The notes: generated by a model from the letters alone, not told the origin. A DNA stretch of 64,000 nt from Vicinamibacteria bacterium (GCA_965232015.1 OZ246946.1:3430612-3494611), one strand, 5' to 3'. Numbered from the stretch's first letter, positions 3,919 to 48,231 are shown. Program-made: numbers and translations.

Positions 3919-3967
3919 CTCGTTCTCCCCGGGGCCAGTGTCGGGCCCCTGAACCGACCGGCGCGAT

Positions 3968-22550: not shown

Positions 22551-22722
22551 GCGGCCCTCCGGGGCTCCTCGCGAAACGCCACAAGGGGTCTCGCCTCCTC
22601 GCTCACGGCGGATGCCCGGCAGCCCGGCGGCGTTGAGCCAACACGCACTCTCCAAGGGATAGCTACGACGCGTGTTGTCACATCTCGGCTTTACCGTCAT
22701 TCGCTCCAGTGGGGAGAGAACC

Positions 22723-24864
22723 ATGAATCCAGTGACGAACTCCGAGCGCTCCGTCCCGTCGCTGTCCCGGGGCGGGAAGCGGCGACTCGGCACCCGGACG
22801 CGTGCGGTCGCAACGTTCCGGCGCGAAGTGAAGGCGGCCACCGATCCGAACGCCACGGACCGTCACGGTGACCCCTGGCTCCACCGCGCCCTTCGCCGCC
22901 CCGACGCCGAGGCCGTGAAAGCGCTCCTCGCCTGCGGCGCCGACCCGAACCGGACGAACGGCCGGGGCTGGACGGCTCTCCACGTAGCGGTCATGAGGGG
23001 CCAGCCGGCAATCGCGATCGCGATGCTGGATCGGGGAGCGGATCCGTGCGTCCGAGACGCAGCGGGATGGTCTCCCCTGGACCGCGCCGTGGTGCGGAAC
23101 GACGGCGAACTCACCGGGCTGCTGCTGGACCGTGGCGCTGACGTCCGCGCCTCGGACCCGCGGGGCGTGACGCCGCTCCACCGGGCCCGGTCGCGGCCCG
23201 TGGCGAAGCTGCTGCTGGACCACGGCGCCGACCCGAACGCAAGGGATGGATCGGGGCGCACGGCCGCGGAGCGCGAGCCGGTCGCCCGAGTGCTGTTCGA
23301 GCGCTGCCTCGACGACCTGAAGCGCGCAGAGTCGGGGGGTGGCGGGCGTGGCCATCGGCGCGAGATCCAGCCTCTCGTGAACCGCCGGTTCGCTCCCAGC
23401 AGATCGGGGAAGAGGGATGACACCCTGCTCCACCGGGCCGTTTGGGAACGCGACGAACGGCTGACGGCGCTGCTACTTGCCCACGGGGCGGACCCGAACG
23501 CCCGGAACATCACGGGCGAGGTCCCGCTTCACCGGGCGCACGACGCGCGATGTGTGCGCCTTCTCCTGGAGAACGGTGCTAACGCGAACGCCCGGAACAG
23601 GGCGGGCGAGGTCCCACTCCACGGGGCGTGTACTACGAAGATCGTCCGCCTTCTGTTGGAACATGGGGCCGATACCGAAGCTAGCAGATACCGCCAAGAC
23701 GGTTCCGGAGACGGTACGCCGCTCCACCGGACCGACGACCCGGAGGCCGCGCGCCTTCTGCTGCGACACGGCGCGCATGTGGAAGCCCGGAATCTCGACG
23801 ACTGTACGCCTCTACACTACGCTCGGAACGCGGATATAGCGCGTGTGTTGCTGGAACACGGGGCGGACCCGAATGCGCGGGCCGACGAAGGAGATGCCCC
23901 ACTCCATATGGCGTACCGCTCGGAGACTACGTGTGCCTTGCTGGAACACGGGGCGGACCCGAATGCCCGGAACGACGAAGGAAGTACCCCGCTCCATCAG
24001 GCGTCCGGCTCGGAGCCCAAACGTGTCCTGCTGGAACACGGGGCGGACCCGAACGCCCGGGACAACGAAGGAAATACGCCACTCCATGAGGCGTACTTCT
24101 CGGAGACTGTGCGTGTCTTGCTGGAACACGGGGCGGACCCGAACGCCCGGAACGACGAAGGAAATACCCCGCTCCATCAGGCGTCCGGCTCGGAGGCCGT
24201 GCGTTTGTTGCTGGAACACGGGGCGGACCCGAACGCCCGGAACGACGAAGGAAATACCCCGCTCCATCAGGCGTCCGGCTCGGAGGCCGTGCGTTTGTTG
24301 CTGGAACGCGGGGCGGATCCGAGCGTCGCCAACCGAGCGGGACATACACCGCTGTACGTCCACTCTCGCGATCGGGACTCGTCTAATGCTATCGCGATGG
24401 TGATGTTCCTGGTGAACCACGTTGCGAACTCTCCCGCACCGGACTCCAGCGAGCAACTCCTGCATGACCTCGACGCGGTGTACGCAGAACTCGGAGCGCC
24501 CGGAGAGCTGCGCGACGATATCCCGCTGGACGGACTCGCAGAGCGCCTGCCGCGGGGAGACATTCCTGACGGCGCCGCGCGGGTCGTCGTCACGGTCCAC
24601 CTGGCCCAAGCAGTGTTCTGGTATCGGAAAGGCGTCCGGGATTGGCTGAAGGCTCACGTTCCGAACGTGGACCCGGACGACAAGAGCTTCGGCCTGCCGG
24701 TGGCCGAAGTGATGCGCCTTGCGAACCGAAGCGGCGATTCCTCGCAGATGGCCCACGTCTGCGCGGAGGTCATCCGTTTCGCGTGCGCGATCGTTCGCGC
24801 CCGCAGGGTGGTTGCTTCGTGTATCGGTCAGCGGTCCTCCGGGAGCAGTCCCGGAGCGCCCTGA
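22723..24864 (+). CDS. Ankyrin-repeat protein, paralog 2 (about 15 ANK-like units + the same C-terminal domain)
   Basis: The N-terminus MNPVTNSERS is homologous to paralog 1 (MNPEPTNSERQ). The C-terminal region ...RVVVTVHLAQAV...VRDWLKAHVPNVDPDD...LPVAEVMRL... aligns with paralog 1. It contains a perfect 2 x 90 bp tandem duplication. Confidence 0.8.
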   Translation: MNPVTNSERSVPSLSRGGKRRLGTRTRAVATFRREVKAATDPNATDRHGDPWLHRALRRPDAEAVKALLACGADPNRTNGRGWTALHVAVMRGQPAIAIAMLDRGADPCVRDAAGWSPLDRAVVRNDGELTGLLLDRGADVRASDPRGVTPLHRARSRPVAKLLLDHGADPNARDGSGRTAAEREPVARVLFERCLDDLKRAESGGGGRGHRREIQPLVNRRFAPSRSGKRDDTLLHRAVWERDERLTALLLAHGADPNARNITGEVPLHRAHDARCVRLLLENGANANARNRAGEVPLHGACTTKIVRLLLEHGADTEASRYRQDGSGDGTPLHRTDDPEAARLLLRHGAHVEARNLDDCTPLHYARNADIARVLLEHGADPNARADEGDAPLHMAYRSETTCALLEHGADPNARNDEGSTPLHQASGSEPKRVLLEHGADPNARDNEGNTPLHEAYFSETVRVLLEHGADPNARNDEGNTPLHQASGSEAVRLLLEHGADPNARNDEGNTPLHQASGSEAVRLLLERGADPSVANRAGHTPLYVHSRDRDSSNAIAMVMFLVNHVANSPAPDSSEQLLHDLDAVYAELGAPGELRDDIPLDGLAERLPRGDIPDGAARVVVTVHLAQAVFWYRKGVRDWLKAHVPNVDPDDKSFGLPVAEVMRLANRSGDSSQMAHVCAEVIRFACAIVRARRVVASCIGQRSSGSSPGAP
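24121..24300. repeat. Intragenic perfect tandem duplication, 2 x 90 bp (30-aa ankyrin unit LLEHGADPNARNDEGNTPLHQASGSEAVRL)
   Basis: 24121-24210 is identical to 24211-24300 base for base. Confidence 0.9.
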
Positions 24865-24962: not shown

Positions 24963-25391
24963 CTACGGGGAAGGCAACTCGGTCTCGCGGTGACTGCGTC
25001 TGCTCCGCATGAGCCGGATCGGCCCTGGATACCGTCCAACCTCGCGGTCGGCGGTGAGCAGCGGGATCCCCTCGACCTGAGCCTGGGCGATCAGGATGCG
25101 ATCGAAGGGATCCTTGCGGATCGGTGGGAGGAGCGCTACGGCTGCCGCGTGGGCGCCGGTGACCGGGAGTTCGGTGTAGTCGTGCTCACGCAGCGCGTGG
25201 CGCAGAAACTGTGGATCCGGGAGCCCACCGCCGCGGCGCAGGGAACTCTTGATCGCAACCTCCCAGATGGACGCGGCGCTGAAGAGTGGCTGTCCGTTGG
25301 GATCTCTGATCAGTGCCAGGGCTCGCTCCGACAGGCGCTCGGGCGAAATCGCAGCCCACAGCAGGAGATGAGTGTCGAGAAGGAGTCTCAA
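24963..25391 (-). CDS. vapC: Type II toxin VapC (PIN-domain ribonuclease)
   Basis: MRLLLDTHLLLW...IWEVAIK...LLTAD... is a PIN-domain acidic-residue pattern. 142 aa; a 4-nt overlap with the upstream antitoxin. Confidence 0.8.
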   Translation of the reverse strand: MRLLLDTHLLLWAAISPERLSERALALIRDPNGQPLFSAASIWEVAIKSSLRRGGGLPDPQFLRHALREHDYTELPVTGAHAAAVALLPPIRKDPFDRILIAQAQVEGIPLLTADREVGRYPGPIRLMRSRRSHRETELPSP

Positions 25392-25669
25392 ACTTCTTCG
25401 GGGTCCCCTTCGTCACCGTCCGAGACACCCTCCCGTCGGCCCTCGAACATGGCCTGGATTTCGTCGGCGCCCAGAGTGTCGAAGTCGTCCGGCACCTGGA
25501 CCTGTCCAGTCAGGAAGCCCAGGCGCGTCTTCGGCGGGGGCGGCTCCACCGCACTCACCTGGACAAGCGGCGTCCCGGCGCGGGCGATGATGAAGGGCTC
25601 GCCGCCGACGGCCTCGCGCACCAGGCGCGAGAGATTGGTCTTGGCATGGTGCATGTTGACCTTTCGCAT
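25388..25669 (-). CDS. Type II antitoxin, Phd/YefM family
   Basis: MHHAKTNLSRLVREAVGGEPFIIARAGTPLVQV is a Phd/YefM N-terminal signature. It is translationally coupled to vapC. Confidence 0.7.
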   Translation of the reverse strand: MRKVNMHHAKTNLSRLVREAVGGEPFIIARAGTPLVQVSAVEPPPPKTRLGFLTGQVQVPDDFDTLGADEIQAMFEGRREGVSDGDEGDPEEV

Positions 25670-25874
25670 GACGACCCCCTCAGTCTAGCCCACCGGACTT
25701 AGTTTAGTCTCACGTCGGGGCAGGCCCCGTTGATCGGCCGCGGGTCGAGCGCAGCGGGGTCGGCGCACTTCGCGGTGATGCGCCGTGGCTCCCGTCGGTG
25801 TCGAGAACCGGCGTGGCGCGCCCTGTCCCGCGGCTGATTCCCGCGGCGGGCGCAGGCCGGCATAATCCGCCGCC

Positions 25875-28800
25875 ATGAAGGTGGAGCTCGTCGCCTGCGC
25901 CCCGCCGGTGAACGAGAGCGAGCGGCGCGCCGCGAACCGGCTGGAGACCGGCCTCATCTCCCGGCCGGGCGACGCGAGATGGGTGTTGTTCACCAACGTG
26001 CTCTTCTCCGCGCGGCCGGAGCAGCAGCCCGACGAGATCGACATCGTGGCCGTGGGGCCGCCGGGGGTCCGGATCATCGAGGTGAAGCACTGGACCGCCT
26101 CGTGGGCGAAGCGCCACCCCGAGATCGTCGAACGCGAAGCCGATCGGGTGACCATGAAGGCCCGGCGCCTCGGGACCACTCTGCGGCAGTCGGTTCCCGG
26201 CCTCGACTTCGTGGCCGGCGTCTTCCTGGTGACCGAGACCGCGGCCAGGGTGCGCGAGTTGGTGCGGAGTGGACCAGTCCGCGGAGTCCCCGTAATTCCC
26301 CTGCACAAGTGGCCCGACGCGGTTGCGCTGGACGATCCGACATCGCTCACTCCGGGCGAAATCGAGGTCCTCGTCCACCAGTTGGAGCGGCGCCAGAGGC
26401 GCGTCCCGACGGGACCGCTGCACCGTGTCGCCGGGTACACCTCTCTGGTTCCGCTCCCGTCGCCGGAATCTCCCTTTCATCGGATCTTCCGGGGAGTCCA
26501 CGCTTCGCGAAAGGACCGCGTGATCCTGCACCTCTACGACCTGTCGGCGGGCGGCGACCCGAAGCGACCGGAGAGGCAGTGGAGCTTTCTCCATCGTTTG
26601 CAGGAGTACCGCTGGGCGCCCCGGATCGTGGACTCGCTCCAGGACGTGCCCGGCCATGACGGTGAGGCGGCCTTCTTCACGCTGGCCGATTCCGAAGCTC
26701 CGGGTCTGAACGAACGGGCTGCGGACAGGGCATGGGGAACCGCGGCTCGGATCGAGTTCGCCGGCAGGGCGGTGAAGGCGCTCGGTCAGTTTCTCGGGGT
26801 TGCGGAGGCCGGCGGCGGACTCCGCAACCCCGGGCCGTTGACGCACGACGCCATCCGGGTCCACGACGACCGTGGACCGATCTTCGCCGGTCTCGCCGGG
26901 AGTTACCCGCTCTCGACATCCGCTCCCCGACCGGGAGAACGGGCGCCCCGGGCCACTCCCGGTGACGACGCGCCCGGAACGGGGATCGCCAAGGTCGAAC
27001 GCGATGAGCCGACCGTGGTGAAAGAACTCGTCGAGTCCCTCATCGGCCTCTTCGAGGAACGGAGCGACTCGGCCAGCCGGAGCGCCACGAGGATCCTGGC
27101 CCGGGGACGCCGGAGTCAGGCGAGCCGCGAGGGGCTCGTCAGCATTCGGAAGGGCCTCCAGCGACTGGCCGCGAAGGAGTCAGCCAGGCCGCCGGTTCCC
27201 CTCGCCGAGTCGTGGACCGATGGACAGGAAGTGTCCAGCGGGGGATGTCGCTATCGCATCGTGTCGCGGCTTGGCCGCGGCGCTGATGCCCCGAGTTTCA
27301 GGGTCGTGGAACTCCACGCCCAAAGCGGCGCGGAACTCGGGTCCTTTGTTGCCCGAGTGGCGCGCGACGAGGCGCGGGGGACGGCGCTTCGAAACGCCCA
27401 TGCCCGGGCCCATTCGCTGCCGGATCACGACGGCCTCGCGCCAATCGCGGCGGTTGCGCCGGAATGGAAGCCTGGCGAATTCGTGACGCTGGCGCCATGG
27501 ATCGAAGGCGAGCCGCTGCGGGAGTACGATGGATTGCTCGCGATCCACGCCGAGGAGATCGGGGATCCGTCCACCGAAGCCCTCGTCACGCGCTGGCTCG
27601 AGCGGCTCGCGCTGGCGCTCGACGTGATGCACCGCAACGGCCTCGTCCACGGCGCCGTGAATCCGGATCACATCATCGTCTCCGGCGACGACGTCGTGCT
27701 CACCGGATTCGATTCGGTCACGCGGATTGGCGGCGACGGGCGGGAGTCGGCCGAGTCCGCTCCGCTCACACCCGGCGACGACTTTCGCGGGCTGGCGGAG
27801 GCCTTCTCGCTCGTTCTCCGGCAGGACGATCCCGACCCGCGCGGCGGCGAGGAAGATCGGCCCGGACCCGGCGTGGATACGGCGTTGTTCCCGGTCGTCG
27901 CGCCCTTCCTGGAGCGGGCGATGGACCCGGATCCGTCGCAACGATTTCGTTCGGCGGCGGAGGTCCTGGGGTCGCTGCGCCCCGCCCGACCCGAGCCGAT
28001 CCCACTCCCGGTGACGCGGACGCAGAACCGCGTGGAATGGCTGCGCCGGCTTCTCGAGTCCTACCCCGGCTCCCGTTGGGGAAATCGCGAGACCCGGGGC
28101 CTCGACAGCGACTTCGCCGCCCGAACCTATGTGCCGACCGAGCTGGAGGACTCGCTGCACCAGGACATCGAGGAGCGTCGGGCGCGGCTCGTGATCCTGT
28201 GCGGGAACGCAGGCGACGGCAAGACGGCGCTCCTGCAACACCTCGTGATGCGGCTCGGGCTCGAGGGGTCATCCTCCGCCCAACGCACTCTGGAGGTGCG
28301 GCTCCCCGATGGCGGGACGGTTCGCATGAATCTGGATGGTTCCGCTTCGTGGGAGGGGCGCTCCGCCAACGATCTGCTCGACGAATTTCTTGCCCCGTTC
28401 CAGGACGGAGCGCCGGACGAGGACATCGTGCACCTCCTGGCGGTGAACGACGGGCGTCTCCTCGAGTGGATCTCGGACTACGAGACGCACCATCACGGGC
28501 ATCCGACGCCGCTTACCGAGGCGCTCACGAACGCGATCGAGGAGGGAGAAGCGCCGGACGCCTCGCACATCCGCTTCGTCAACCTGAACCATCGTTCTCT
28601 GGTGGGGTCATCGCAGACGGATGGGACGGGTGCGCCCCGGTTCCTCGACGGACTGGTGGATGCCCTCTACGGCGGCGCCCGCGCCGAGGACATCTGGCGG
28701 CCGTGCCAGACCTGCTCCGCGCAGGAGCGTTGCGAGGTCTTTCGCGCCGCTCGCGTCTTCGGCCCGGCCCCGCTCGGGCCGGAAGAGGTTCGCGCCCAGG

Positions 28801-29807
28801 CCCGGAAGCGGCTCTACGACGCCCTGCGCGCGGTCCACCTGCGTGGCGAGACCCACATCACGATCCGGGAACTGCGCGGCGCGCTGGTGTACATCCTCTT
28901 CGGCACGGAGGATTGTTCCGACTACCACGCGAGCGACCGTCCGGTTGCGCGTTGGGCCGGTTACGGGGAGCGGGCCTTCGCGCCGGAGTCCGCGGCCCGA
29001 CAGGGTGAGGTCCTGCGGGAGCTGGTCCAGTTCGACCCGGCGCTCGAATCCGACGCCGAGCTGGACCGCACGCTGTGGCGGACCCACCTGGCTCACCGGA
29101 GCGGGGGAGAATGGATCCGACTGGGGAGCGACGAGCTCGGGACGCTCCGCCGCTGGGCCTGGTTCGGGATCACGGCGTCCGCTGACGGGACGCCTTCGCT
29201 CGTGGATCACGCACCGGTTGCGCTCGCCGGAGGAGCGAACCTGAGCCGCTTCGAGGCTCTGGCCCGCCCCGGAAGTCACCAGGACGCCGTGAGGGATCTC
29301 TGCGCCGGGATCTCCAGATTGCAGTTGCTGCCATCCGCGGCGCTGAAGCGGGACGGGGTCGTACCGCTGCCGATCACGCCACGAACGCCGACCGAGACGG
29401 CGTTTTGGGTCGAGAAGCGCCTCGACTCGTTCCGGGTGGAACCGGTGCTGCCGCGAACCGGGGACGGAGCGGGCCGACTCCACCGGCAGGCGCGCCTCCT
29501 CTACCGCTATGGGGACGGCCGGGAGGAGGAGCTGCGCCTCGGGGCCGGCCTGTTCCACCTGCTGCTCGAGTTGAGTGATGGTTACCAGTTGGGGGATGTG
29601 GCGACGGATGGCACCTTTGCGCAGCTTTCCATTTTCGTCCGGCGGATCCTCCAGGAGGACGAGCGCACGATCATGGCGTGGAATCCGATGCGCGAGGACG
29701 CGATCTACCGCGTGAGCGCGGCGGTCGAGGAGGCATCGGGCCGGCCGCTGCAGCTCCTGCGGATCACCCCGGTGGGAGGCGGGTCCCGGTTTGGCGAGGT
29801 CCGGTGA
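25875..29807 (+). CDS. Giant multidomain protein (1310 aa): N-terminal NERD nuclease-related domain, central degenerate protein-kinase-like domain, NACHT/STAND-like P-loop NTPase, unknown C-terminal domain
   Basis: NERD: ...EIDIVAVGPPGVRIIEVKHW... (aa ~50-75). Kinase-like: ...IVSRLGRGADAPSF... (Gly-rich loop), ...HRNGLVHGAVNPDHIIV... (catalytic loop lacking the HRD Asp), ...LTGFDS... (DFG-like). P-loop: LVILCGNAGDGKTALL (Walker A) and HLLAVNDGRLLE (hhhhDGxxE Walker B, NACHT-like). It is the first gene of a 5-gene same-strand cluster. Confidence 0.7.
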   Translation: MKVELVACAPPVNESERRAANRLETGLISRPGDARWVLFTNVLFSARPEQQPDEIDIVAVGPPGVRIIEVKHWTASWAKRHPEIVEREADRVTMKARRLGTTLRQSVPGLDFVAGVFLVTETAARVRELVRSGPVRGVPVIPLHKWPDAVALDDPTSLTPGEIEVLVHQLERRQRRVPTGPLHRVAGYTSLVPLPSPESPFHRIFRGVHASRKDRVILHLYDLSAGGDPKRPERQWSFLHRLQEYRWAPRIVDSLQDVPGHDGEAAFFTLADSEAPGLNERAADRAWGTAARIEFAGRAVKALGQFLGVAEAGGGLRNPGPLTHDAIRVHDDRGPIFAGLAGSYPLSTSAPRPGERAPRATPGDDAPGTGIAKVERDEPTVVKELVESLIGLFEERSDSASRSATRILARGRRSQASREGLVSIRKGLQRLAAKESARPPVPLAESWTDGQEVSSGGCRYRIVSRLGRGADAPSFRVVELHAQSGAELGSFVARVARDEARGTALRNAHARAHSLPDHDGLAPIAAVAPEWKPGEFVTLAPWIEGEPLREYDGLLAIHAEEIGDPSTEALVTRWLERLALALDVMHRNGLVHGAVNPDHIIVSGDDVVLTGFDSVTRIGGDGRESAESAPLTPGDDFRGLAEAFSLVLRQDDPDPRGGEEDRPGPGVDTALFPVVAPFLERAMDPDPSQRFRSAAEVLGSLRPARPEPIPLPVTRTQNRVEWLRRLLESYPGSRWGNRETRGLDSDFAARTYVPTELEDSLHQDIEERRARLVILCGNAGDGKTALLQHLVMRLGLEGSSSAQRTLEVRLPDGGTVRMNLDGSASWEGRSANDLLDEFLAPFQDGAPDEDIVHLLAVNDGRLLEWISDYETHHHGHPTPLTEALTNAIEEGEAPDASHIRFVNLNHRSLVGSSQTDGTGAPRFLDGLVDALYGGARAEDIWRPCQTCSAQERCEVFRAARVFGPAPLGPEEVRAQARKRLYDALRAVHLRGETHITIRELRGALVYILFGTEDCSDYHASDRPVARWAGYGERAFAPESAARQGEVLRELVQFDPALESDAELDRTLWRTHLAHRSGGEWIRLGSDELGTLRRWAWFGITASADGTPSLVDHAPVALAGGANLSRFEALARPGSHQDAVRDLCAGISRLQLLPSAALKRDGVVPLPITPRTPTETAFWVEKRLDSFRVEPVLPRTGDGAGRLHRQARLLYRYGDGREEELRLGAGLFHLLLELSDGYQLGDVATDGTFAQLSIFVRRILQEDERTIMAWNPMREDAIYRVSAAVEEASGRPLQLLRITPVGGGSRFGEVR

Positions 29808-31599
29808 CGCCCGCGCCATCGTGCGCGACGTGCTGCCGCGCGCGATGGCGAACAGGATCTGGTCCGCCAGCTACCGCCGGGCTCTTCCGGTCGAACTCAA
29901 CAACTTCGATCTCCCGGCCCTCCTGCCCACCGTCTTCTACCTGTTCCGCTTCGGTTACCGGCGGGGGAGCGGGCATTTTCTCCGCGCCTTCGCCCCGGTG
30001 GCGGCGACGACTGCGGCGGAACGGAGGCGACGCACGACCGCCGACCGCATCGCGGAGGTGCTCGCCGACCGCTCGGATCTGGAGGGATTCTCGGGACCGG
30101 CCGAGCGGGCGGTGCTCGGTGATCTCCTCCTCTGTTTCTGCCTGCAAAACGCGCGCAGCGCCCTCGGCCGGGACCGACAGATCCAGCGGGCGGCCCCCAC
30201 CCACTACCTGGCGAGCTGGATTGATCTCCCGCATAACACCGGCGCCGTGAGGCTCGTGCCGGAAATGGTGGTGGCGACCCTGTCGAACCAGAAGGGACGT
30301 TATGTGGAGCGAACGGGGGAGAAAGGCGGTGGGCGAACCTGGTTCCCCATCAGCGATCCCGAACGTAATGTCCTGCTCAAGGAGTTCGACGGAGGGATGT
30401 CCTGGGCCCGCCTGAAGGCCGACCGGGCCGGCGACCACTTCGACGAGAATTCGGCGGTCGGATTGGATCAACTCCTGACGGCTCGGCTGGCGCAGCAACT
30501 GGAGAGCGCGCCCGACAAGCTGCGGGGGAGGACGGCCTCGAAGATTCCCAATCGGAGGTCCATCGGAAGCAAGTCGGCCCGCTGCTTTTCGGAGGACATG
30601 CGCAAGTTCGTGCGCGCTTACGCCGGGCCCATGCCGAGGCGCGTGCTCCTCGACGGCCTCGAATCCTGTGTGGCGACCGGGCTGACGACCATGCTCGGAA
30701 ACGCGGCGGAAGTCCTCTTCCAGTGGTTCGCAACCGGGGAGATCCCGGAGCCGAGCAGTCAGGAACCGGCGCAGCTGCTCGTGGACTGTTCTCAGGGTCT
30801 CGATCGAGGGGTCCAGCACCGCGCCGAAGATTCGATGGACGAGTTCACGCGGCGGCTGTGGCGTTTCCCGGAGATCCTCATGACGTTGCGGCTGCTCGAC
30901 TATTCGGTGCGTGGGAATCGGACCATCATGGCGGCCGGAAAAACGGATTACGACGAGGATCCCGACCCGAGCGCCTGGATCGGACTGCTCGGGAGGGTTC
31001 TCCACGAGAGGCAGGAGGGATCGGAGCTGGTCCACTACCAGCTCGACCAATACGGGCTCCAGCTCGCCGACGAGCTTGACTCCGAGCACCCGGACGTCGC
31101 GGAGACCTTGCGAGACCAGGGCCGGCAACCCAATGCCGTGCGGAGGCTCGCCGCGGCGCTCACCGTCCTGATGGGGCGTCATCTCACTTCCGGGCATCTG
31201 TTCAGTTTTCTCGATTCAGCCAGCGGCGTCGCCGGACCGAACGCCCTCGTGTTCAAGCGACGGACCACGCGCGGTGCGGGAGGCGGCCGGAGAACACGCG
31301 ACGTGCGCCGACTGGTATTCGGCGATTCGATGCTGGAGTACCTCGTCCACCGCCACCTCCTCTCCCACAAGGCGAGACTCCGCCACCTCTCCTTCCCCGA
31401 GTTCCTCCGCGGCCTCCGCAAGCGGTACGGATTCCACGTGGATCGGGCGCCGGACAACACGGAGGTCTCGAGCGAGATCCTGCAGCGGAACCGGATGTTC
31501 CTCCAGCGGCGGCTGCGCGATCTCGGTCTCCTGCGCGGCGTGAACGACGCGGACTCCATGAAGCGGCTGACTCCGCGATTCCGCCCCCGGGCGCGATGA
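29791..31599 (+). CDS. Hypothetical protein (602 aa), no recognisable motif; second gene of the cluster
   Basis: The long ORF overlaps the upstream stop by 17 nt (TTG at 29791; alternative GTG at 29821 or ATG at 29845). It ends in an ATGA overlap with the next gene. Codon usage is typical of its neighbours. Confidence 0.6.
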   Translation: MARSGDARAIVRDVLPRAMANRIWSASYRRALPVELNNFDLPALLPTVFYLFRFGYRRGSGHFLRAFAPVAATTAAERRRRTTADRIAEVLADRSDLEGFSGPAERAVLGDLLLCFCLQNARSALGRDRQIQRAAPTHYLASWIDLPHNTGAVRLVPEMVVATLSNQKGRYVERTGEKGGGRTWFPISDPERNVLLKEFDGGMSWARLKADRAGDHFDENSAVGLDQLLTARLAQQLESAPDKLRGRTASKIPNRRSIGSKSARCFSEDMRKFVRAYAGPMPRRVLLDGLESCVATGLTTMLGNAAEVLFQWFATGEIPEPSSQEPAQLLVDCSQGLDRGVQHRAEDSMDEFTRRLWRFPEILMTLRLLDYSVRGNRTIMAAGKTDYDEDPDPSAWIGLLGRVLHERQEGSELVHYQLDQYGLQLADELDSEHPDVAETLRDQGRQPNAVRRLAAALTVLMGRHLTSGHLFSFLDSASGVAGPNALVFKRRTTRGAGGGRRTRDVRRLVFGDSMLEYLVHRHLLSHKARLRHLSFPEFLRGLRKRYGFHVDRAPDNTEVSSEILQRNRMFLQRRLRDLGLLRGVNDADSMKRLTPRFRPRAR

Positions 31600-34500
31600 G
31601 TCGTTCCGGGAACTCGTTCGGGCGTCTCGTCGCCCGAGCGTTCGAGCAGGTTCTCGGCGAGGGCCGGGAAGGGTCGGTGGCCTTCGTTCGCTGCCTCTCT
31701 CCGGAGGCGGTGGAGCGGCTCGCCCGGGACTCCTCGTTCCAGCCGGACGGATGGCGGGTTCACCGGATTGCTGACGACCAGGACCTTGCGGCGCGGACGA
31801 TCCCCGCGGACCAGGCGGTCGAGGCGCGGGAGGGCAAGGGGGGAGCGCTGCTCTTCCTCGTGGACACCGAGCTCGCCGGAGCCGGAATGGACGGCATCTT
31901 CAGCGCGGGGCGCGAGGTCGGAGAGGAGGAGCTCTTCGCAAGGGCCCACCGAGTGGCTCTTGGCGCGATCACCGCCGAACTCGACTCCGGGACTCGTCGC
32001 TACGCCGAAACGGCGATCCGTCCCAGCCGCAGCGGAGCCTTGTCCGTCTCGCCCGCCGCTCGGTTCGAGTTCCTGTGCCGGGTACTGGATGGAGAGGAGT
32101 CGCCCGGCGCCCACCTGGCGCTCCTGGGGCTCTGGCCGGTTCTCGACTCCGCAGAACCGGACTTTCGGGAGGCCCTGAGTCTCTCCGAGATCTTCGCCGC
32201 CCAGCTCCTCGGCGCGGTCGGCTCGGGTCTGCCACCGGCGCAGCGGGTCGAGGCGCTTCAGCTCGATCCCGATCTGAAAGAAGAGCGACAGGAGCTGTTG
32301 CGGTTCCTGACCGAAGTGGACACGCTGTCGGTCCGCCAGGCGCTGGACGAGCTGGAGGAGCACAGCGATCTATGGATCGGCGCCCTGCGGATCAAGTCGC
32401 CAACGAAGATCCGGGGGATCGAGCTCAAGCCGTGGCGGAACAAGAACGGCAGTCTGGCGAAGTGGTCGGGTCTGGCGCCCGGGTCGAAGCCGGAGAGCCC
32501 GCCCCAACTCGTTCTGGGGCTGGGTCGGGAGCAGGACGACACGAGGTTCGCCCTCGAAGTGCAGTGGAAGGTGGACCCGCCGCGCCTTCCCAAGGGAGCG
32601 GCGGAGTACCGCGTCTCGATTCGCTCCGACCAGGACGAGCCGATCGTGGAGAAGCTCGCTCGACACCGCGCTCTCCGATCCGGGGAGAAGCTCCGGTTCA
32701 CGCGGGAAGACTTCGCCGAGGTGTCCGAAGGCGCGGATCTGTCCGCTTCTGTCCGGCTCGAAGTCGTCGCCCATCCCGCCATCGCTCGCCAGGAGAGCGA
32801 GGAATTCCAGATCCGGTTCGGGGACCAACCCGAGACATCCGCCGCCGGAGCCGGGAAGCAGGTGCGCGCCTTCAGCGAAGGCCTGATCGACCTGGGTGGG
32901 CGGGAAGCGGTGGCGGAGGCCGCTGCCGATCCGAGCGCGCTCGATTGGGATCCCGGGAAGGAGTGGGTCGTCCTGAGAACGCCGCTCATCGGAGGGCGCC
33001 GGCGCACCTACAAGGTCCGGCGGCCGGCGCTCATCGCGGAAGTCGAGCGCGACTGGGTCGTACGCCAGGGAGCGCCGGGGTACTGGACACTCGAAGTGCG
33101 GGCCGACGGCGCCGCGGCTCGTCACCCGACCTTCGAGCCGCTGGACCCGGACGCGGGATCAGCGTGGGAACCGGTCGCCAGGGCGAGTCGGCGCCTCGCG
33201 CGGCGCTTCGGCGAGGGCGGGGGAACGGCCCAGATCTACGAGGCCCCGAAGGGCATGGTCCCCGTCGTCAGGGACTACCTGAAGGCGTGGTCGGGGCTCC
33301 TCGCAACCGGTCCTCCGAAGGCGGCGGTGGCGAACACGCTCCTGGTCCGGTCCCAGTCCGGGCGCACCGTCGGGCTGGTCGTTCTCCCGGCGCACCCGGT
33401 GCGCGTCGCGTGGCATTCGGCCTACGACAACCTGGTGTTCCAGGCGGCTTTCGCTCAGGAGCAGAAGCCAGCCGATGTGCGCCGCGAGCTCGCCCGCCTC
33501 GATGGGGCGATGTTCCCTGCTTTCCTTCCCAACCCGCAAGGAGGTGCGTTCGTCTTCGCCGACATGCTGGGGTTCCACCTCCCGGCGATGGTGGCGGACA
33601 AGGATCCGGAACCGAAGGCGGCGGTGGCGCTCCTTGCCCGGGCGCTCGGCGGCAAACGGGGGACCGAAGCGGCGCCGACGGTGGGCGGTCGCACGGCTCG
33701 CGTTCTCGCGACGGAGGTCCGCCGTTATCTCGACGCTCATGGCCTGCCCCGCGTCCTCCACCTTCATGCCTTGCGGGCCGGAGACGGCATGACGGTGGCT
33801 CGCGCCCTCGGCGCTGTCCTGAAGCAGGAACGGGACGAACAGCCCGACTCCGGCCCTCCGGGCGCGCGGCGGTCGGAACGGGCAGTGAGCTTCGGGCTGG
33901 ACCTCTACCCCTCGGCCCGGCAGCGCAGTGTCGCGGGGCGCTTCATATCCGAGGCTCGGGAAAAGAGGAGGACGGCGACGGGCGTCCTGCCTCCCGAAGA
34001 CCGCTGGATGCTGGAGTCCCTGAGTCTTCCCGGAGGCGTCACTCGGCCCCGTCTGCGCTGGGCCCGAAAGGAGGCGGGGCAGCCGGACACGAGCGCTCAT
34101 CTGGCGGTCGCCTTCGATACGTTCGAGTCACGAGTGGAGGCGAGGGCCGAGTCGGCGGATGCCGAGCCGCCGTACTACGCCTTCGGGCTTTCCTCGTTCT
34201 ACGAGCGACGCTACGCGGCCGCCCCCTTCCCGACGTGGTCCAGCCGGCCGGTGGTCGGTGGCCGAGGCAGGAAACACCCGGCCGGGCCGAGCCATACCGA
34301 TGCGCTCACGGCGGTGCAGCGCGCCGTGCACCGATCCGTCGTTCGACATCTCGGAAACCATGGCGGCGCTCCGGTCCTCCGAACGACCGTCGGTTCCGAG
34401 GAGGCCGAGAGCCTGGACCTGCTCCATCGGCGCGCCGACTGGGTGGTCACTCTCGACCGGAACGCGGGGATCGAGTACTTCGACTCGCCCCGGGATCACC

Positions 34501-36683
34501 CCGATATCTACGACGCCTACGTGATCGATTGCGTGCCGGAGCGCGAGGATCTCGGTTGTCTGCAGCTCATCACTTCGACGAGGAACGTGGACGAAGTGCG
34601 GAGCGTCCTCGACCCGGCGCTCGAGCAGATGGGGCTTCCGCAGAGCCGGAGGAACGCCGATTTCGTCCTCGAACAACTGAAGGCGTTGAGCGGGCGGCTC
34701 GCCATCCGTCTGACCGGGCGCCGCCCCCCGACCGCGGAGCTTGTCGCGCTGGCCGCGGCGCACGCCGGCTGCCGAAACGCCGAAGGCGACCAGAACGGGT
34801 GGGTATCGCTGCAAGACGGCTTCCTGGTTCCGGTGGACGATGTGCGAGAACTGTTCGCGCCGCTTGTCCCGAGTTCGGCCCGACAGGAGACCGCGACGCG
34901 CCCCGACCTGATCTTCGTGTCGCTGGGGCGTCGGCTCTGCCTGCAGTTCATCGAAGTGAAGTACCGGCGCAACCTGCGCGGAGCCCAGGCCGCAGACACC
35001 CTGACCCGGATCTCTCGCCAGACGCATGAGTTCCGCAAGCGGTGGGAGCGCTACTACGGCCGGAGCGCCCCCGGCGTCTTCCGGTCCATCCGCCGGGCTC
35101 ATCTGGCCCGCGTGCTCCGCTTCTATGCGGACAAGGCGGCCCGGCACCATCTTCCCGCCGCCCGACACCGGGCATTCCTGCGCGAGATCGCGTCCATGGT
35201 GGCGAAGGGCGGGGCGTACGGCTTCGCGGACCCCGTGGGCGGAGACCTCGGCTGGGTCTTCTGTCCGGAGTACGGCGGGCGCCAACCCCTCCGAATCTGG
35301 CCGGGAACCCGAGGTGTGCAGGTGTTCCTGTGCGGACCGGCCGCGATGCTGGAGCCTCCCGCAGCCGCCGCCGACGACCGACGCGCGGACATCGTGACCC
35401 GGCGGCCCGTCGCGGTCGAATCCGGAAGCTCCCGTCGGAAAGCGTCGCCCGGGGTTGCCGACCCGGAGGAGGCGCCGCCGAGACGCTCGGCGCCTCGGAT
35501 CCCGCGAGACGCTCGCCCGACTCCGGCCGAGGACAACGCCGATCCCGGGACTCCGCTGGGGTTGAGCCTGGGTCAGGACACGCTCTCCGGAGTCCGAACC
35601 CGTTGGGATCTGTCGGTGCGGGGGAATCCCCATCTCCTCATCGCGGGCCTTCCCGGGATGGGCAAGACGACCTGTCTGGTGAACCTCTGCAGGCAGATGG
35701 TTTCCGCCGGGGTCCCTCCCATCGTGTTCTCGTACCACCAGGACATCGACGAGAGGCTGGAAGAGGTGGTCGGTCCCCTCCGGTTCGTGGACTTCGCCGG
35801 TCTCGGGTTCAATCCGCTGAATGTCGTCTCGAGTGGAGTCGTCAACGCCCATCTCGACGTGGCGGGCTCGATCCGGGACATCTTCAGCGCGATCTATCCC
35901 GAGATCGGAGACGTGCAGGCGGGCCGGATCCGGACCGCCGTGAAGGAGAGCTTCGAGGAAGTCGGCTGGGGTCCCGGACAGGCTGCGGAGCAGACGCCCC
36001 CGTTCGGCCGTTTCATGGAGATCCTCCGGAGCGTCCCGGATCAGGACATCGGGCTGCGCCGGCTGCTCGAACGGCTCGGCGAGCTCGAGGACTACGGTCT
36101 GTTCGCGCCCGCCCGGGCGGAGGATCAAGGTCTCTGGTCGGGAGACCGCACGACCGTGGTGCGCGTCCACAGTACGCAGAACGAAGTGCTGCAGCGGGCT
36201 TTCTCGTTCCTCGTCTTCTACGGGATGTACAAGGACATGTTTCGGCGCGGCATCCAGGACCGGATCACGCACGCTCTCGTCTTCGATGAGGCCCATCGGG
36301 CGGCCCGACTCAGGTTGCTGCCGACGATGGCGAAGGAGTGTCGCAAGTACGGCGTGTCGTTCGTGCTTGCGTCCCAGGAGGCGAGGGACTTCGATCCGTC
36401 GGTGTTCTCGGCGATCGCGAACTATCTGATCCTCCGATGCACCGACGTGGATGCGCGAGCCCTGGTGCGGAATGTGGCGACCCGCCGGCAGGAGCGAGCT
36501 CTGGTGGACCGGATCAAGCAGATGCCCAGGTACCAGGCGCTCCACTTCAGCGAGGCCCGATCGCGCCCGTCCCGCGTGGCGCTCGATCCCCCGGCGGCGG
36601 CGTATGGAGCGGGAGCGCCGGACTCCACCAGTTCTCCCGGTGGGGGGCCGGCACCGGGAGTCACGACAGCCAGCGCCGAGTGA
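31596..36683 (+). CDS. Giant protein (1695 aa): long N-terminal region of unknown function, PD-(D/E)XK-like nuclease motif, C-terminal HerA/FtsK/VirB4-like (DUF87-type) P-loop ATPase; last ~25 aa encoded by a REP-like element
   Basis: ...PDLIFVSLGRRLCLQFIEVKYRRN... has D...E-V-K spacing at aa ~1100. ...HLLIAGLPGMGKTTCLVNL... is a Walker A. ...HALVFDEAHRAA... is a Walker B. ...VSFVLASQEARDFDPSVFSAIANYLILRC... is HerA/AAA_10-like. Confidence 0.7.
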   Translation: MSRSGNSFGRLVARAFEQVLGEGREGSVAFVRCLSPEAVERLARDSSFQPDGWRVHRIADDQDLAARTIPADQAVEAREGKGGALLFLVDTELAGAGMDGIFSAGREVGEEELFARAHRVALGAITAELDSGTRRYAETAIRPSRSGALSVSPAARFEFLCRVLDGEESPGAHLALLGLWPVLDSAEPDFREALSLSEIFAAQLLGAVGSGLPPAQRVEALQLDPDLKEERQELLRFLTEVDTLSVRQALDELEEHSDLWIGALRIKSPTKIRGIELKPWRNKNGSLAKWSGLAPGSKPESPPQLVLGLGREQDDTRFALEVQWKVDPPRLPKGAAEYRVSIRSDQDEPIVEKLARHRALRSGEKLRFTREDFAEVSEGADLSASVRLEVVAHPAIARQESEEFQIRFGDQPETSAAGAGKQVRAFSEGLIDLGGREAVAEAAADPSALDWDPGKEWVVLRTPLIGGRRRTYKVRRPALIAEVERDWVVRQGAPGYWTLEVRADGAAARHPTFEPLDPDAGSAWEPVARASRRLARRFGEGGGTAQIYEAPKGMVPVVRDYLKAWSGLLATGPPKAAVANTLLVRSQSGRTVGLVVLPAHPVRVAWHSAYDNLVFQAAFAQEQKPADVRRELARLDGAMFPAFLPNPQGGAFVFADMLGFHLPAMVADKDPEPKAAVALLARALGGKRGTEAAPTVGGRTARVLATEVRRYLDAHGLPRVLHLHALRAGDGMTVARALGAVLKQERDEQPDSGPPGARRSERAVSFGLDLYPSARQRSVAGRFISEAREKRRTATGVLPPEDRWMLESLSLPGGVTRPRLRWARKEAGQPDTSAHLAVAFDTFESRVEARAESADAEPPYYAFGLSSFYERRYAAAPFPTWSSRPVVGGRGRKHPAGPSHTDALTAVQRAVHRSVVRHLGNHGGAPVLRTTVGSEEAESLDLLHRRADWVVTLDRNAGIEYFDSPRDHPDIYDAYVIDCVPEREDLGCLQLITSTRNVDEVRSVLDPALEQMGLPQSRRNADFVLEQLKALSGRLAIRLTGRRPPTAELVALAAAHAGCRNAEGDQNGWVSLQDGFLVPVDDVRELFAPLVPSSARQETATRPDLIFVSLGRRLCLQFIEVKYRRNLRGAQAADTLTRISRQTHEFRKRWERYYGRSAPGVFRSIRRAHLARVLRFYADKAARHHLPAARHRAFLREIASMVAKGGAYGFADPVGGDLGWVFCPEYGGRQPLRIWPGTRGVQVFLCGPAAMLEPPAAAADDRRADIVTRRPVAVESGSSRRKASPGVADPEEAPPRRSAPRIPRDARPTPAEDNADPGTPLGLSLGQDTLSGVRTRWDLSVRGNPHLLIAGLPGMGKTTCLVNLCRQMVSAGVPPIVFSYHQDIDERLEEVVGPLRFVDFAGLGFNPLNVVSSGVVNAHLDVAGSIRDIFSAIYPEIGDVQAGRIRTAVKESFEEVGWGPGQAAEQTPPFGRFMEILRSVPDQDIGLRRLLERLGELEDYGLFAPARAEDQGLWSGDRTTVVRVHSTQNEVLQRAFSFLVFYGMYKDMFRRGIQDRITHALVFDEAHRAARLRLLPTMAKECRKYGVSFVLASQEARDFDPSVFSAIANYLILRCTDVDARALVRNVATRRQERALVDRIKQMPRYQALHFSEARSRPSRVALDPPAAAYGAGAPDSTSSPGGGPAPGVTTASAE
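36596..36665. repeat. REP-like element copy at the 3' end of the giant gene
   Basis: GGAGCGGGAGCGCCGGACTCCACCAGTTCTCCCGGTGGGGGGCCGGCACCGGGAG has the same modules as the other copies. It is translated as ...GAPDSTSSPGGGPAPG... Confidence 0.55.
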
Positions 36684-36704
36684 ACGCTGGGAAGGACAGT
36701 CGAG

Positions 36705-36947
36705 ATGAGTGATCTCTACGCGCGGGTCTCGTGGTTCCGAGATCTCGCCCGGCGCATTGCCGATGGTGGGAAGGAGTACCTCGCCGACCGAGTTCCCAAG
36801 GTGGACTGGAAGAAAAGGAGGCCCCCGGCGGTTGTCCAAATGGGCCTCGCTCTCTCGGCCAGCCCGGACGCGCTCCTCGATCAGATCCGGAAGCTGGCCA
36901 TGCGGATTCGCGGTGCGGCGGCCGCCGTCCACTTTCACGCGGTCTGA
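36705..36947 (+). CDS. Hypothetical small protein (80 aa)
   Basis: ORF with an SD-like GGAAGGA 12 nt upstream. It has lower GC and sits between the two ATPase genes on the same strand. Confidence 0.35.
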   Translation: MSDLYARVSWFRDLARRIADGGKEYLADRVPKVDWKKRRPPAVVQMGLALSASPDALLDQIRKLAMRIRGAAAAVHFHAV

Positions 36948-37004
36948 CTACGCTTGACACGAGCTCCAGCACCGAGTGGTCGGCCCGCGAGATACGCTCC
37001 GGAC

Positions 37005-38192
37005 ATGAAGCGACAGCGAGGCTGGGAGAACCCGTTCCAGCCCGGGGCGGGCGCGTCGCCTCCGGTCCTCGCGGGGCGGGAACGAGAGGTCTCGCTGGGG
37101 CGGGGGCTGCTGGATGTCCTCGAATCAGGTTCCCGACCTTCGCGGGGGCTGCTCTATTTCGGGCCCCGCGGGAACGGCAAGACCGTTCTGCTCGCACATC
37201 TGGCGGACGAGGCGCGCGGGCGCGGAATGCGCGCCGAGGGGCTGCCGGCGGACTGCTTCGCCGACCGCGAAGAGCTGATCGGGAGGCTCCAGGAGAACGC
37301 GGGGCTCGCCCGAGCCGAGATCACGGCAATGCAGGCGGCGGGGTTTGGCGTCGCCTCCGTCCCCGGACCCCGAACCCGCAGCATTGGAGGACTCCTGGCC
37401 TCGTGGATCGGACTCGCGGAGAGTCCCCTGGTGATCCTGCTCGACGAGGCGCAGTCAGTGGAGCCGGCGGCCGGTCGCATCTTCTTCGCCGCGGTTCAAG
37501 AGGCGACGATGGATGCGCTGCCCTTCGCGCTCATCGCCGCCGGAACCCCCGATGCTCCGCGGCGCCTACGCCGGTGCGGAACATTCATCGAACGCGCGCT
37601 CCGCCGGGTACCCGTGGGACGCCTGAATCGGAAGGAAACCCTGCTCGCGCTCGAGGAGCCCGCACGACGGGCGGGGCGGCCGACCTCCGGTGGCGCCGCC
37701 CAGCGGCTGGCGTCGGAGTCGCAGGACTATCCGTTCTTCATCCAGCTCCTCGGAAGCGCCGCCTGGGATGCGGCGCGGCCCGGGGCCCGGTTGATCGATT
37801 CGGACGCCGCGAGGGCCGGAGTGATGGCGACCCGCCCGGAGATCCAGGACTTCTACGCGGAGCGCTACGAGGAGGCCCGAGCCCGCGGCGTTCATCGGCT
37901 CCTGTGGCCGCTCGCGCATCGCATCGTGGACGGAGGCGGCCAGATTGACGATCGCGCACTCGACGCGCTGCTGGAGAGAAGCGGCTCGTCGGATGCGCAG
38001 GCTCGGGTTCTCGCCACGCTCACGGACCTCGGCGTCCTGTGGCAAGCGGCGCCCGGCATCTGGGAAATGGGCATCCCGAGCTTCGCCGAGCATGTGCTGC
38101 GTCGAGGCCGGGTCTCGCACAAATCCCACCCGGCCTCGAGAGCTGCCGATGATCGGCAAGAGCAGCCTTCTCCGCGCTCGAAGCAAAGGTGA
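37005..38192 (+). CDS. AAA+ ATPase (AAA_16 / 'archaeal ATPase'-like, STAND-related)
   Basis: ...NPFQPGAGASPPVLAGREREVSLGRGLLDVLESG...GLLYFGPRGNGKTVLLAHL... is the N-terminal FxxR motif followed by a Walker A. ...LVILLDEAQ... is a Walker B. About 396 aa from the ATG at 37005. Confidence 0.65.
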   Translation: MKRQRGWENPFQPGAGASPPVLAGREREVSLGRGLLDVLESGSRPSRGLLYFGPRGNGKTVLLAHLADEARGRGMRAEGLPADCFADREELIGRLQENAGLARAEITAMQAAGFGVASVPGPRTRSIGGLLASWIGLAESPLVILLDEAQSVEPAAGRIFFAAVQEATMDALPFALIAAGTPDAPRRLRRCGTFIERALRRVPVGRLNRKETLLALEEPARRAGRPTSGGAAQRLASESQDYPFFIQLLGSAAWDAARPGARLIDSDAARAGVMATRPEIQDFYAERYEEARARGVHRLLWPLAHRIVDGGGQIDDRALDALLERSGSSDAQARVLATLTDLGVLWQAAPGIWEMGIPSFAEHVLRRGRVSHKSHPASRAADDRQEQPSPRSKQR

Positions 38193-38876: not shown

Positions 38877-39710
38877 ATGCCCCCGGACCGCAGCCCTCTC
38901 TTTGAGGCGCAGAACGCACCTCGCTACGAACGTCAGTCGCTTATCGCACAGTACGAGGCTGAGCACAGGTGCCGTCTTGTCGTAGTCAGTGACCCGCTCT
39001 TTCCGCATAGCATCGCACCGTTCGAGGAGGTCCTGTTCGACGTGGAGTTGGGCCAGGATCTTCACGTCGTCCTACGTACACCGGGTGGAGACGGCGAGAC
39101 TGCGGTTCGACTCGCACGACAGGCACATGCTCGTTGCGACAGATTGACGGTAGTCATTCCGGATCAGGCCAAGAGCGCGGGGACACTCTTCGCGCTTGCC
39201 GCACACCGGATCATCATGGGTCCGACGAGTGATCTCGGACCCATCGACCCTCAGCTGCTTCTCCCGAATGGCTCTTTCGTAGCAGCGCGAGCCATCATCG
39301 CGTCGGTGGATGAGGCGGAGCGGAGGATTCAGGAGAATCCAGCCACGTATCCGCTCCACGCGTCGCTCCTCGCCGAAGTGACCGGGGTGCTGGTTCAGCA
39401 GGCGCGAGACGCCTTGGATCGGACCGATGACTTGCTGAATGCCGCCCTCGGGTGTGTGTCGGACCGTAGCGAGGGGGATATCCAGACGTTGGCGGAACGT
39501 GTCAGGGAGCCGCTGATCAAGGAGCCCAGGAGCCATTCCGCGATCGTCTCGTCAAGCGACGCGCAGCGGTTCGGTCTCCCGGTCAAGATTGCTGACGCGG
39601 ACTCGCCTCGGTGGAAGGACATCTGGCGGCTGTGGACCAAGTATGCCGTCCTGAACGCGGTCCGGATCTACGAAGGGCGCACTGCGTCGCTTGTCATTTC
39701 CTCTGCCTGA
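38877..39710 (+). CDS. SDH-family serine peptidase (serine dehydrogenase proteinase, ClpP/crotonase fold; Pfam SDH_sah-like)
   Basis: ...LHVVLRTPGGDGETAVRLAR...IPDQAKSAGTLFALAAHRIIMGPTSDLGPIDPQ... matches the characteristic Ser-containing core of this family. Confidence 0.6.
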   Translation: MPPDRSPLFEAQNAPRYERQSLIAQYEAEHRCRLVVVSDPLFPHSIAPFEEVLFDVELGQDLHVVLRTPGGDGETAVRLARQAHARCDRLTVVIPDQAKSAGTLFALAAHRIIMGPTSDLGPIDPQLLLPNGSFVAARAIIASVDEAERRIQENPATYPLHASLLAEVTGVLVQQARDALDRTDDLLNAALGCVSDRSEGDIQTLAERVREPLIKEPRSHSAIVSSSDAQRFGLPVKIADADSPRWKDIWRLWTKYAVLNAVRIYEGRTASLVISSA

Positions 39711-43600: not shown

Positions 43601-43797
43601 GCCTCGTCGGGAAGATCCGGGTTTAGCCGGTCCAAGGCGTCACGTAGCCGATGTTCCAGAACGACTTCGGAGTGGTCGGCCCGCTCCGCGCCGTCCGCGT
43701 GCGGGGCGATGTCGGGACCGTGCGCCACCTTCCACCCGAGACCTTCGAGCCATTCGAGCGCGGCGGCTTCGACTTCCGACTCGGTGAAGATAGTCAT
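40657..43797 (-). CDS. hsdR: Type I restriction enzyme R subunit
   Basis: [22 protein letters not shown]... is the N-terminal nuclease region, with ...[18 protein letters not shown]... (PD-(D/E)XK). Helicase motifs are ...[12 protein letters not shown]... (motif I), ...[11 protein letters not shown]... (DEAH) and ...FIGFTGTP... A C-terminal helical domain follows. The start ATG is complementary to 43795-43797. Confidence 0.9.
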
Positions 43798-43882
43798 CAG
43801 GCACCCTCGCTGCCTGGTGCCGGCACAAACTTCGCCGCCTGGGCATCTCGCTCGCGTTGATGCGGGGCACTCCCGCGGTCGG

Positions 43883-47466: not shown

Positions 47467-47505
47467 CGCTGGATGCCTTGAACCGATCGCCTGGGAATCC
47501 GACCT

Positions 47506-48227: not shown

Positions 48228-48231
48228 GTGG

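Follow-up and report, generated by a model that had tools for sequence, protein, structure and literature searches.

The 64,000-nucleotide stretch of a Vicinamibacteria bacterium genome analyzed here, hereafter the window (GCA_965232015.1 OZ246946.1:3430612-3494611), carries five co-directional open reading frames (ORFs) at positions 25875–38192, all on the + strand and located within a defense island. The first three genes, which we call F, G, and H, encode the large proteins P1, P2, and P3. Gene F (25875–29807) specifies the 1310-residue P1, gene G (29791–31599) opens with a TTG start codon and specifies the 602-residue P2, and gene H (31596–36683) specifies the 1695-residue P3. Two smaller ORFs follow, P4 (36705–36947; 80 residues) and P5 (37005–38192), whose product measures 395 residues when translated from an ATG and 412 residues from a TTG at position 36954. 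An earlier annotation made from the nucleotides alone (the sequence-only reading) had described five co-directional genes, overlapping or tightly spaced, and our ORF call confirmed their coordinates and sizes; it had also joined all five into a single new defense system. Comparison of homologous loci reveals instead that P1–P3 form a real, widespread, and ordered three-gene cassette, and the five-gene unit is not upheld. We consider it probable that this cassette (25875–36683) is a self-contained, horizontally mobile defense module of the class comprising the MADS core (MAD6-MAD7-MAD8), SspFGH, and DndFGH.

Searching ~186,000 species-representative genomes with a P2-homologue profile yielded 186 confirmed loci, of which 80 were kept for locus comparison. 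Homologues of P1, P2, and P3 are adjacent, on the same strand, and in the same order in all 80 loci, with identities of 40–57% and full length wherever the contig allows. Their hosts include Binatia, Gammaproteobacteria, Spirochaetia, Latescibacterota, Caldilineaceae, Planctomycetota, and Acidobacteriota, among others. The three genes are translationally coupled, with a 17-nt overlap between F and G and a 4-nt overlap between G and H, and are always found together where contigs allow. The F, G, and H reading frames display the strong third-position GC bias of real genes in such GC-rich DNA (~69% GC for the window), in which a scan for promoters and terminators was uninformative. Clustering all flanking ORFs of the 80 loci in search of a conserved fourth gene returned no family present in more than 7 of them. 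The closest relative of P2 outside the window's near-identical genomes (L086; 62% identity) belongs to a trio that stands alone amid aromatic amino-acid biosynthesis genes. The trio also resides on conjugative Rhizobium plasmids, beside insertion sequence (IS) elements, where RefSeq names its products ‘NERD domain-containing protein kinase family protein’, ‘hypothetical protein’, and ‘ATP-binding protein’. Two loci (L052 and L053) carry a short, core-only F of about 600–650 residues. In the sister genome L085, P1–P3 are 96–98% identical to the window copies.

Domain architecture of the three proteins

P1 begins with a NERD PD-(D/E)xK nuclease domain (res. 1–130; 25875–26264) that scores 33.6 bits against the Pfam NERD model, above the cut-off of 22.1, and exposes the motif D53/D56…E69-V-K71, invariant in the family alignment. 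A first kinase-like domain follows (res. ~180–440; 26412–27194), with approximate boundaries drawn from family alignments. In every family member, the sequence LHLYD replaces the lysine of strand β3, and HRN and TGF replace the HRD and DFG motifs; by these substitutions, the domain is predicted to be a pseudokinase throughout the family. The second kinase domain (res. ~445–700; 27207–27974), defined by alignments and by PDB matches to Ser/Thr kinases at residues 568–702, retains the catalytic K/D/N/D set (positions K494, HGD594, N599, and D611) in 52 of 54 homologues and looks catalytically competent in most of them, judging from its motifs. One such homologue (L081) gives a full-length Pfam Pkinase match of 69 bits. 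Both the NERD and a kinase-like domain had been recognized in P1 by the sequence-only reading, and both calls hold.

The window copy departs from this pattern. Its second kinase domain is degenerate, carrying the changes K494R, D594A, N599H, and D611G. The residues at the four catalytic positions are R/A/H/G in both the window and L085, L/N/N/G in L086 and L087, and R/G/S/G in L023. Within the window's clade, both kinase modules are only 41–45% identical to their relatives, whereas pairs with active kinases share 56–73%; the NERD and P-loop regions of the same clade remain 62–74% identical to their relatives. The kinase has been lost in the window's lineage while the rest stays under constraint. 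Because all catalytic residues are gone in this lineage, the kinase module could serve there only as a scaffold.

The C-terminal half of P1 is built around a DndF/SspF-type P-loop domain of the nucleotide-kinase-like kind with a large lid (res. ~720–1070; 28032–29084). The best PADLOC match of this domain is SspF (E = 8e-19, residues 753–1016), and DndF also matches (E = 1.6e-5). Its Walker A motif GNAGDGKT (K783), the MNLDGS block, and the Walker B motif LLAVND are invariant in the family, and the domain carries a cysteine cluster formed by C944, C947, and C953. The remaining C-terminal domain (res. 1071–1310; 29085–29804) occupies the position of the α+β domain of DndF, as deduced from the published DndF description (PMC10853773). 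It is conserved within the P1 family and matches no family in Pfam, PADLOC, or NCBIfam.

P2 is a MAD7-family protein. All P2 homologues carry a precomputed Pfam assignment to PF26611 (MAD7), and P2 itself aligns with the NCBIfam MAD7 model over nearly its full length. PADLOC adds a weak SspG match (E = 4e-5) confined to 84 residues at the C-terminus.

P3 is the largest of the three proteins and can be divided into an extended N-terminal region, a nuclease module, and a C-terminal motor. The N-terminal ~900 residues (31596–34295) are tentatively resolved into an α/β plus helical part (res. 1–260), a β-sandwich (res. ~270–520), and a Rossmann-like α/β part (res. ~575–900). Residues 1–1100 have 788 representative relatives, some of them full length with 25–32% identity. 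A Foldseek search with the N-terminal region returned no assignment, and a Pfam scan of the central region (res. 520–930) in five divergent members, at E-values up to 10, gave nothing meaningful. Residues 724–731 (33765–33788) form a near-invariant HALRxGDG element with a β-strand/Gly-rich loop/helix arrangement, whose G729 is conserved in at least 95% of sequences, even among relatives of 25–50% identity. By its motif, this element resembles the loops with which Rossmann-type folds bind nucleotides or cofactors.

The PD-(D/E)xK restriction-endonuclease module of P3 (res. ~925–1200; 34368–35195) is defined by motif conservation, by profile alignment to MAD8, and by a tblastn match; the family conserves the DWVVTLDRNAGIEYFDSP block and the motif RPD1104…E1120-V-K1122. 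The HerA/FtsK-type ATPase that follows (res. ~1316–1665; 35541–36590) has the Walker A motif GLPGMGKTT (K1357) and the Walker B motif VFDEAH (D1564/E1565). PADLOC matches the P3 C-terminus to mad8 (E = 9e-16), DndH (E = 1e-13), and also HerA, and the best PDB match of P3 is the ATPase domain of DptH (7es4). The sequence-only reading had correctly picked out the PD…EVK nuclease motif and the HerA/FtsK-like ATPase in P3, as well as the three Walker A motifs GDGKT, GMGKT, and GNGKT in the locus.

Relationship to MADS, SspFGH, and DndFGH

MADS (methylation-associated defense system), DndFGH, and SspFGH are large systems whose mechanism of restriction is poorly understood; MADS is defined by methylation, and mad6, mad7, and mad8 are each required for MADS defense (Maestri et al., bioRxiv 2023, 10.1101/2023.03.30.534895; Cell Host Microbe 2024). 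As a control, we used a locus reached through a tblastn match on a Bacteroides finegoldii plasmid (NZ_OY725936.1, 11394-27084; L092), which has only generic annotation in RefSeq. It encodes, in order, a helix-turn-helix (HTH) regulator, an N6 methylase, a specificity (S) subunit, the kinase MAD6 (1390 residues), MAD7 (528 residues), MAD8 (1845 residues), and a PP2C phosphatase. Its three large proteins exceed the NCBIfam cut-offs (568 versus 460 bits for MAD6, 538 versus 410 for MAD7, and 179 versus 175 for MAD8), and the locus is therefore a bona fide MADS. This arrangement suggests that a kinase and a phosphatase form a regulatory pair in some subtypes of MADS.

The window cassette follows the MAD6-MAD7-MAD8 gene order of this locus and encodes proteins of comparable size (1310, 602, and 1695 residues). 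P1 matches the control MAD6 across the second kinase and the whole P-loop domain (BLASTP, E = 4e-28), the P2 family aligns with MAD7 (hhalign probability 96.3%, E = 2e-9), and for the P3 family and MAD8 the alignment spans the nuclease module (hhalign 97.8%, E = 9e-13). The differences lie around these core genes. No HTH regulator, N6 methylase, or specificity subunit was found among the ORFs scanned at 25670–38192, and no homologue of the other mad1–5 genes was detected in the window operon, whereas the genuine MADS carries its methylase and S genes directly upstream of mad6 in the same operon. Most of the 80 loci likewise have none of these genes. The phosphatase gene that follows MAD8 in the control has no counterpart after H in the window, and the kinase is inactive in the window copy.

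A second set of relatives is provided by DndFGH/DptFGH and by SspFGH, the restriction module of the SspABCD-SspFGH phosphorothioate systems. Rakesh, Aravind & Krishnan (NAR 2024, PMC10853773; NAR 2026, PMC12839542) have described stand-alone DndFGH units whose DndF core carries a fused NERD domain, inactive kinase, and active kinase. Linkage to the dndABCDE phosphorothioation genes belongs to the classical definition of DndFGH but is not demanded by PMC10853773. The same paper describes DndF as a derived P-loop kinase whose Walker A is canonical and whose Walker B contains an asparagine; strand 2 bears an acidic/ND motif, and the lid is large and helical. The window cassette shares with these systems a three-gene F-G-H organization, usually found apart from dndABCDE, a NERD plus tandem kinase fused N-terminally to F, and an F core with an intact Walker A, the Walker B asparagine, and a Cys-rich lid insert. 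None of the window ORFs scanned is a dndABCDE gene, and no such gene forms a conserved neighbor in the 80 loci. The P1 family aligns weakly with Massilia DptF in the P-loop (hhalign E = 1.5e-4, probability 52%), in an alignment that pairs the Walker A motif, NLDGS, and LLAVND. H is likewise comparable to DndH/DptH in size (~1700 residues) and in placing a nuclease ahead of a HerA/FtsK ATPase closest to DptH; the P3 family aligns with Massilia DptH in the ATPase only (hhalign 97.7%). Two features of the Dnd proteins served for comparison with G and with the N-terminal region of H: DndG/DptG is a triple winged-helix DNA-binding protein, and the DndH N-terminus contains a SWI2/SNF2 C-domain plus HTH, two β-sandwiches, a target-recognition domain, and an inactive adenine methylase.

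SspFGH is related to the cassette through the SspF match of the P1 P-loop and the weak SspG match at the P2 C-terminus. Both matches are partial, covering SspF profile positions 35–278 of 600 and the 84 residues of SspG, and P1 has an extra NERD plus kinase module of ~700 residues. No sspABCD genes lie near the window cassette. The N-terminal half of P1 resembles a further protein, PglW of type 2 BREX, which has the same order of NERD, pseudokinase, and kinase (PMC12839542); the PADLOC PglW model matches P1 weakly at residues 444–602 (E = 3e-5). The two proteins differ in their C-terminal halves, where P1 has the DndF-type P-loop and PglW a triple winged HTH and an inactive STAND domain, and no PglX, PglY, or PglZ is encoded in the operon or neighboring ORFs.

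By these comparisons, the cassette is closest to the MADS core, then to SspFGH, and then to DptFGH, and it is probably a form of the MADS-core/DndFGH class that has no methylase. Its architecture had already been sketched computationally in 2024 (PMC10853773). The sequence-only reading could match the genes to no named system, and at curated thresholds neither PADLOC nor NCBIfam assigns the cassette. It had not considered MADS, Ssp, and Dnd, yet the trio does have relatives there, being homologous to MAD6-MAD7-MAD8 and, more remotely, to SspFGH/DptFGH.

Several observations weigh against placing the cassette in this class or against assigning it a defense role. The NCBIfam scores of the window proteins fall far under the curated cut-offs for MAD6 (71.3 versus 460 bits, over the N-terminal region including the NERD) and MAD7 (115.4 versus 410), and P3 has no match to the MAD8 model at E < 0.01. 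At the same threshold, none of the three hits an NCBIfam DptF, DptG, or DptH model; the corresponding scores of bona fide Massilia proteins are 447 bits for DptF and 299 bits for DptG. P2 has no similarity to DptG by hhalign (probability 0.1%), and a Foldseek search of the PDB with its AlphaFold2 model, which has a mean confidence (pLDDT) of 64 and an unmodelled N-terminal half, returned nothing at or below 1e-3. The N-terminal ~1300 residues of P3 lack sequence similarity to DndH profiles, and distant P3 relatives match those profiles in the ATPase only and not in the N-terminal part; the first ~900 residues give only weak fold matches, of the classes reported for DndH, which do not map to residues. 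We infer the defense role only from homology and island context, and the absence of a modification module leaves the sparing of self-DNA unexplained. Moreover, the kinase is dead in the window copy, which may therefore differ in function from the family norm.

Proposed mechanism and competing readings

A mechanism can be proposed by analogy with the nickase and translocase activities of DndFGH, reported in PMC11662687, and with the requirement for mad6–8 in MADS. F, G, and H would assemble into one complex, in which G and the N-terminal modules of H would bind DNA. The HerA/FtsK motor of H would translocate along DNA, and the H nuclease would nick or cut invading DNA. The P-loop of F may act as a nucleotide-binding sensor or switch, and the NERD nuclease, together with the kinase in most relatives, could act as a second or back-up effector. 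The unit contains no methyltransferase or phosphorothioation gene, and discrimination between self and non-self must therefore differ from that in MADS.

An extension of this proposal, which we regard as possible and somewhat doubtful, is that the F-G-H trio provides immunity autonomously and independently of modification, as the ancestral or minimal ‘engine’ to which MADS, Ssp, and Dnd have each joined a different DNA-marking module. The trio would then distinguish invading DNA with no epigenetic mark of its own, perhaps through nucleotide sensing by the F P-loop or through the HerA/FtsK motor recognizing replicating or entering DNA. As another option, the HALRxGDG loop of P3 might be a cryptic cofactor-binding or enzymatic site in which the discrimination step resides. 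If the trio does defend alone, it would offer a minimal system in which to learn what the MAD6-8/DndFGH machinery senses and how self-DNA is avoided.

The strongest competitor of the self-contained cassette holds that the window encodes a true MADS-type, methylation-dependent system whose methylase and S subunit act in trans, supplied by the HsdM/HsdS genes ~10 kb downstream or by an unlinked methylase. This reading draws on the homology of the trio to MAD6-8, on the use of N6-methyladenine by MADS for discrimination, and on the complete type I restriction–modification (RM) system present at 40657–49884 (− strand). The flanks of the 80 loci speak to it on both sides. Within about 5–6 kb on either side, 8 of the 80 have an N6-methylase-like gene and 72 have none, and no neighbor is conserved. 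In locus L028, one of the eight, an HSDR_N + N6_Mtase + Methylase_S fusion (3435–5657, − strand) lies directly upstream of the cassette; its gene cluster spans 7 of the 80 loci, all with such a fusion in that position. With this type IIG/ISP-like gene, the trio may now and then be coupled to methylation, a state between the stand-alone form and MADS. A metagenome-assembled genome of Binatia (L005) carries an HsdM (2995–4509, − strand) 81% identical to that of the window, located ~1.4 kb upstream of the cassette; island fragments carrying both may travel together between phyla. An HsdM-like gene is also found 2.5 kb upstream of the cassette in L086. Against action in trans, the type I system of the window has its own HsdR and lies on the opposite strand, and genuine MADS keeps the methylase and S genes in its operon, immediately upstream of mad6. 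On this evidence, we judge a methylase acting in trans unlikely, and the self-contained cassette the better account.

We think it very unlikely that the window copy is a decaying, non-functional remnant. All four catalytic positions of the kinase are mutated, the unit has no modification partner, the kinase modules diverge faster in this clade, and the adjacent P4 relic, described below, shows that genes decay locally. The three ORFs are nevertheless intact and full length when compared with the 80 homologues, and the motifs of the NERD, the Walker A and B sites, the H nuclease, and the ATPase are all in place, with the NERD and P-loop regions constrained as noted above. The trio is also preserved at 96–98% identity in related genomes and recurs in the kinase-dead L086/L087 clade. 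Should the trio defend alone, such a kinase-dead lineage would help separate the role of the kinase from those of the nucleases and the motor.

Less probable still is the novel five-gene system proposed by the sequence-only reading, in which P1 acts as a NACHT sensor-effector of the Avs/STAND kind, with P4 and P5 as integral components. It has in its favor the shared direction and close spacing of all five ORFs, weak sub-threshold Pfam nSTAND and NACHT matches at the P1 Walker A, and the sister genome L085, which keeps a small ORF and an AAA_16 gene after P3 (P5 90% identical). However, the NACHT match reaches 17.1 bits where the cut-off demands 26.7 and extends over just 25 residues at the Walker A, and the Pfam scan of P1 revealed no TPR, WD40, or LRR repeat sensor domain. 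We rejected the NACHT/STAND assignment of P1 on the strength of this sub-threshold score, the far better SspF match, and the Walker B asparagine (LLAVND) that is a hallmark of the DndF type. The Avs/STAND logic drawn for P1 falls with it.

Neither P4 nor P5 belongs to the cassette. Both are missing from all 80 loci, in which P1–P3 are invariably kept, and from L086/L087; only the near-identical L085 has the small ORF and AAA_16 gene downstream of P3. The earlier proposal of a multi-gene, defense-type module in a defense island stands; the count of five genes does not. In tblastn comparisons, P4 residues 1–47 are 66% identical to the start of a McrB-like gene in locus L001, and residues 31–70 share 47% identity with the C-terminal end of McrC in the same locus, where the intact mcrBC pair sits upstream of a P5 homologue. 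From these matches and this arrangement, P4 is an mcrBC deletion relic in which the mcrB N-terminus and the mcrC C-terminal end were fused via an internal deletion. We accordingly discarded P4 as a small subunit, given the mcrB/mcrC match and its absence from the 80 loci.

P5 is an independent neighboring gene that encodes a stand-alone AAA_16 ATPase. The AAA_16 assignment, anticipated by the sequence-only reading, is supported by a Pfam score of 37 bits against a cut-off of 32.6. The P5 family comprises AAA_16 ATPases of ~375 residues, with 305 homologues, often in multiple copies per genome. Its members match no PADLOC or NCBIfam model, and the PDB matches of P5 are limited to generic AAA+ Walker A similarity. 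The trio is missing around the P5 homologues, which lie beside McrBC in L001 and beside transposases in L003, and three tandem paralogues stand beside toxin-antitoxin genes in L004 (7268–11143). P5 was rejected as a cassette component because its homologues occur without the trio and it is absent from all 80 loci. Family members sit among toxin-antitoxin and restriction genes, and the family may be a stand-alone defense or selfish gene family. For cloning experiments, the reduction of the unit from five genes to three is of practical importance.

It is barely conceivable that the trio works for a mobile element, for instance through HerA/FtsK-driven DNA pumping or partition, and not for host defense. 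In favor of this reading, conjugation and segregation use HerA/FtsK ATPases as DNA pumps, DndH-type ATPases have been ‘captured’ from such systems (PMC10853773), and copies lie on the conjugative Rhizobium plasmids beside IS elements. Against it, the trio has two nuclease domains, its surroundings in the 80 loci show no conserved gene for an integrase, a relaxase, or replication, mad6–8 are needed for phage defense in MADS, and a viral contig collection scanned with the P2 profile contained no relatives.

Genes surrounding the cassette

The defense modules that the sequence-only reading placed on both sides of the five ORFs are indeed present. On the upstream side, a PIN + Phd pair (24963–25669) and a PemK/MazF pair (19709–20283) lie on the − strand. 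Between these MazF-type and Phd/PIN toxin-antitoxin pairs, inside the defense island, two ankyrin-repeat proteins of 661 and 730 residues are encoded in tandem on the + strand (20565–22550 and 22672–24864), each with 7–8 matched repeat stretches in Pfam. One of the two is also found in the sister genome L085.

On the downstream side, an SDH-type protease gene (38877–39710) precedes the complete type I RM operon, which consists of HsdR, HsdM, and S genes together with a RloC-like AAA_13 gene. The RloC-like gene (43883–46168) is placed between hsdR and the S gene, and HsdM occupies 48232–49884 (− strand). A 600-residue ORF (46165–47967), in which a Polbeta/NTP_transf_2 nucleotidyltransferase region and a Methylase_S region are both present, may be a fusion or two genes. 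A gene for an NTase_sub_bind (HEPN-like) partner is found at 50117–50533.

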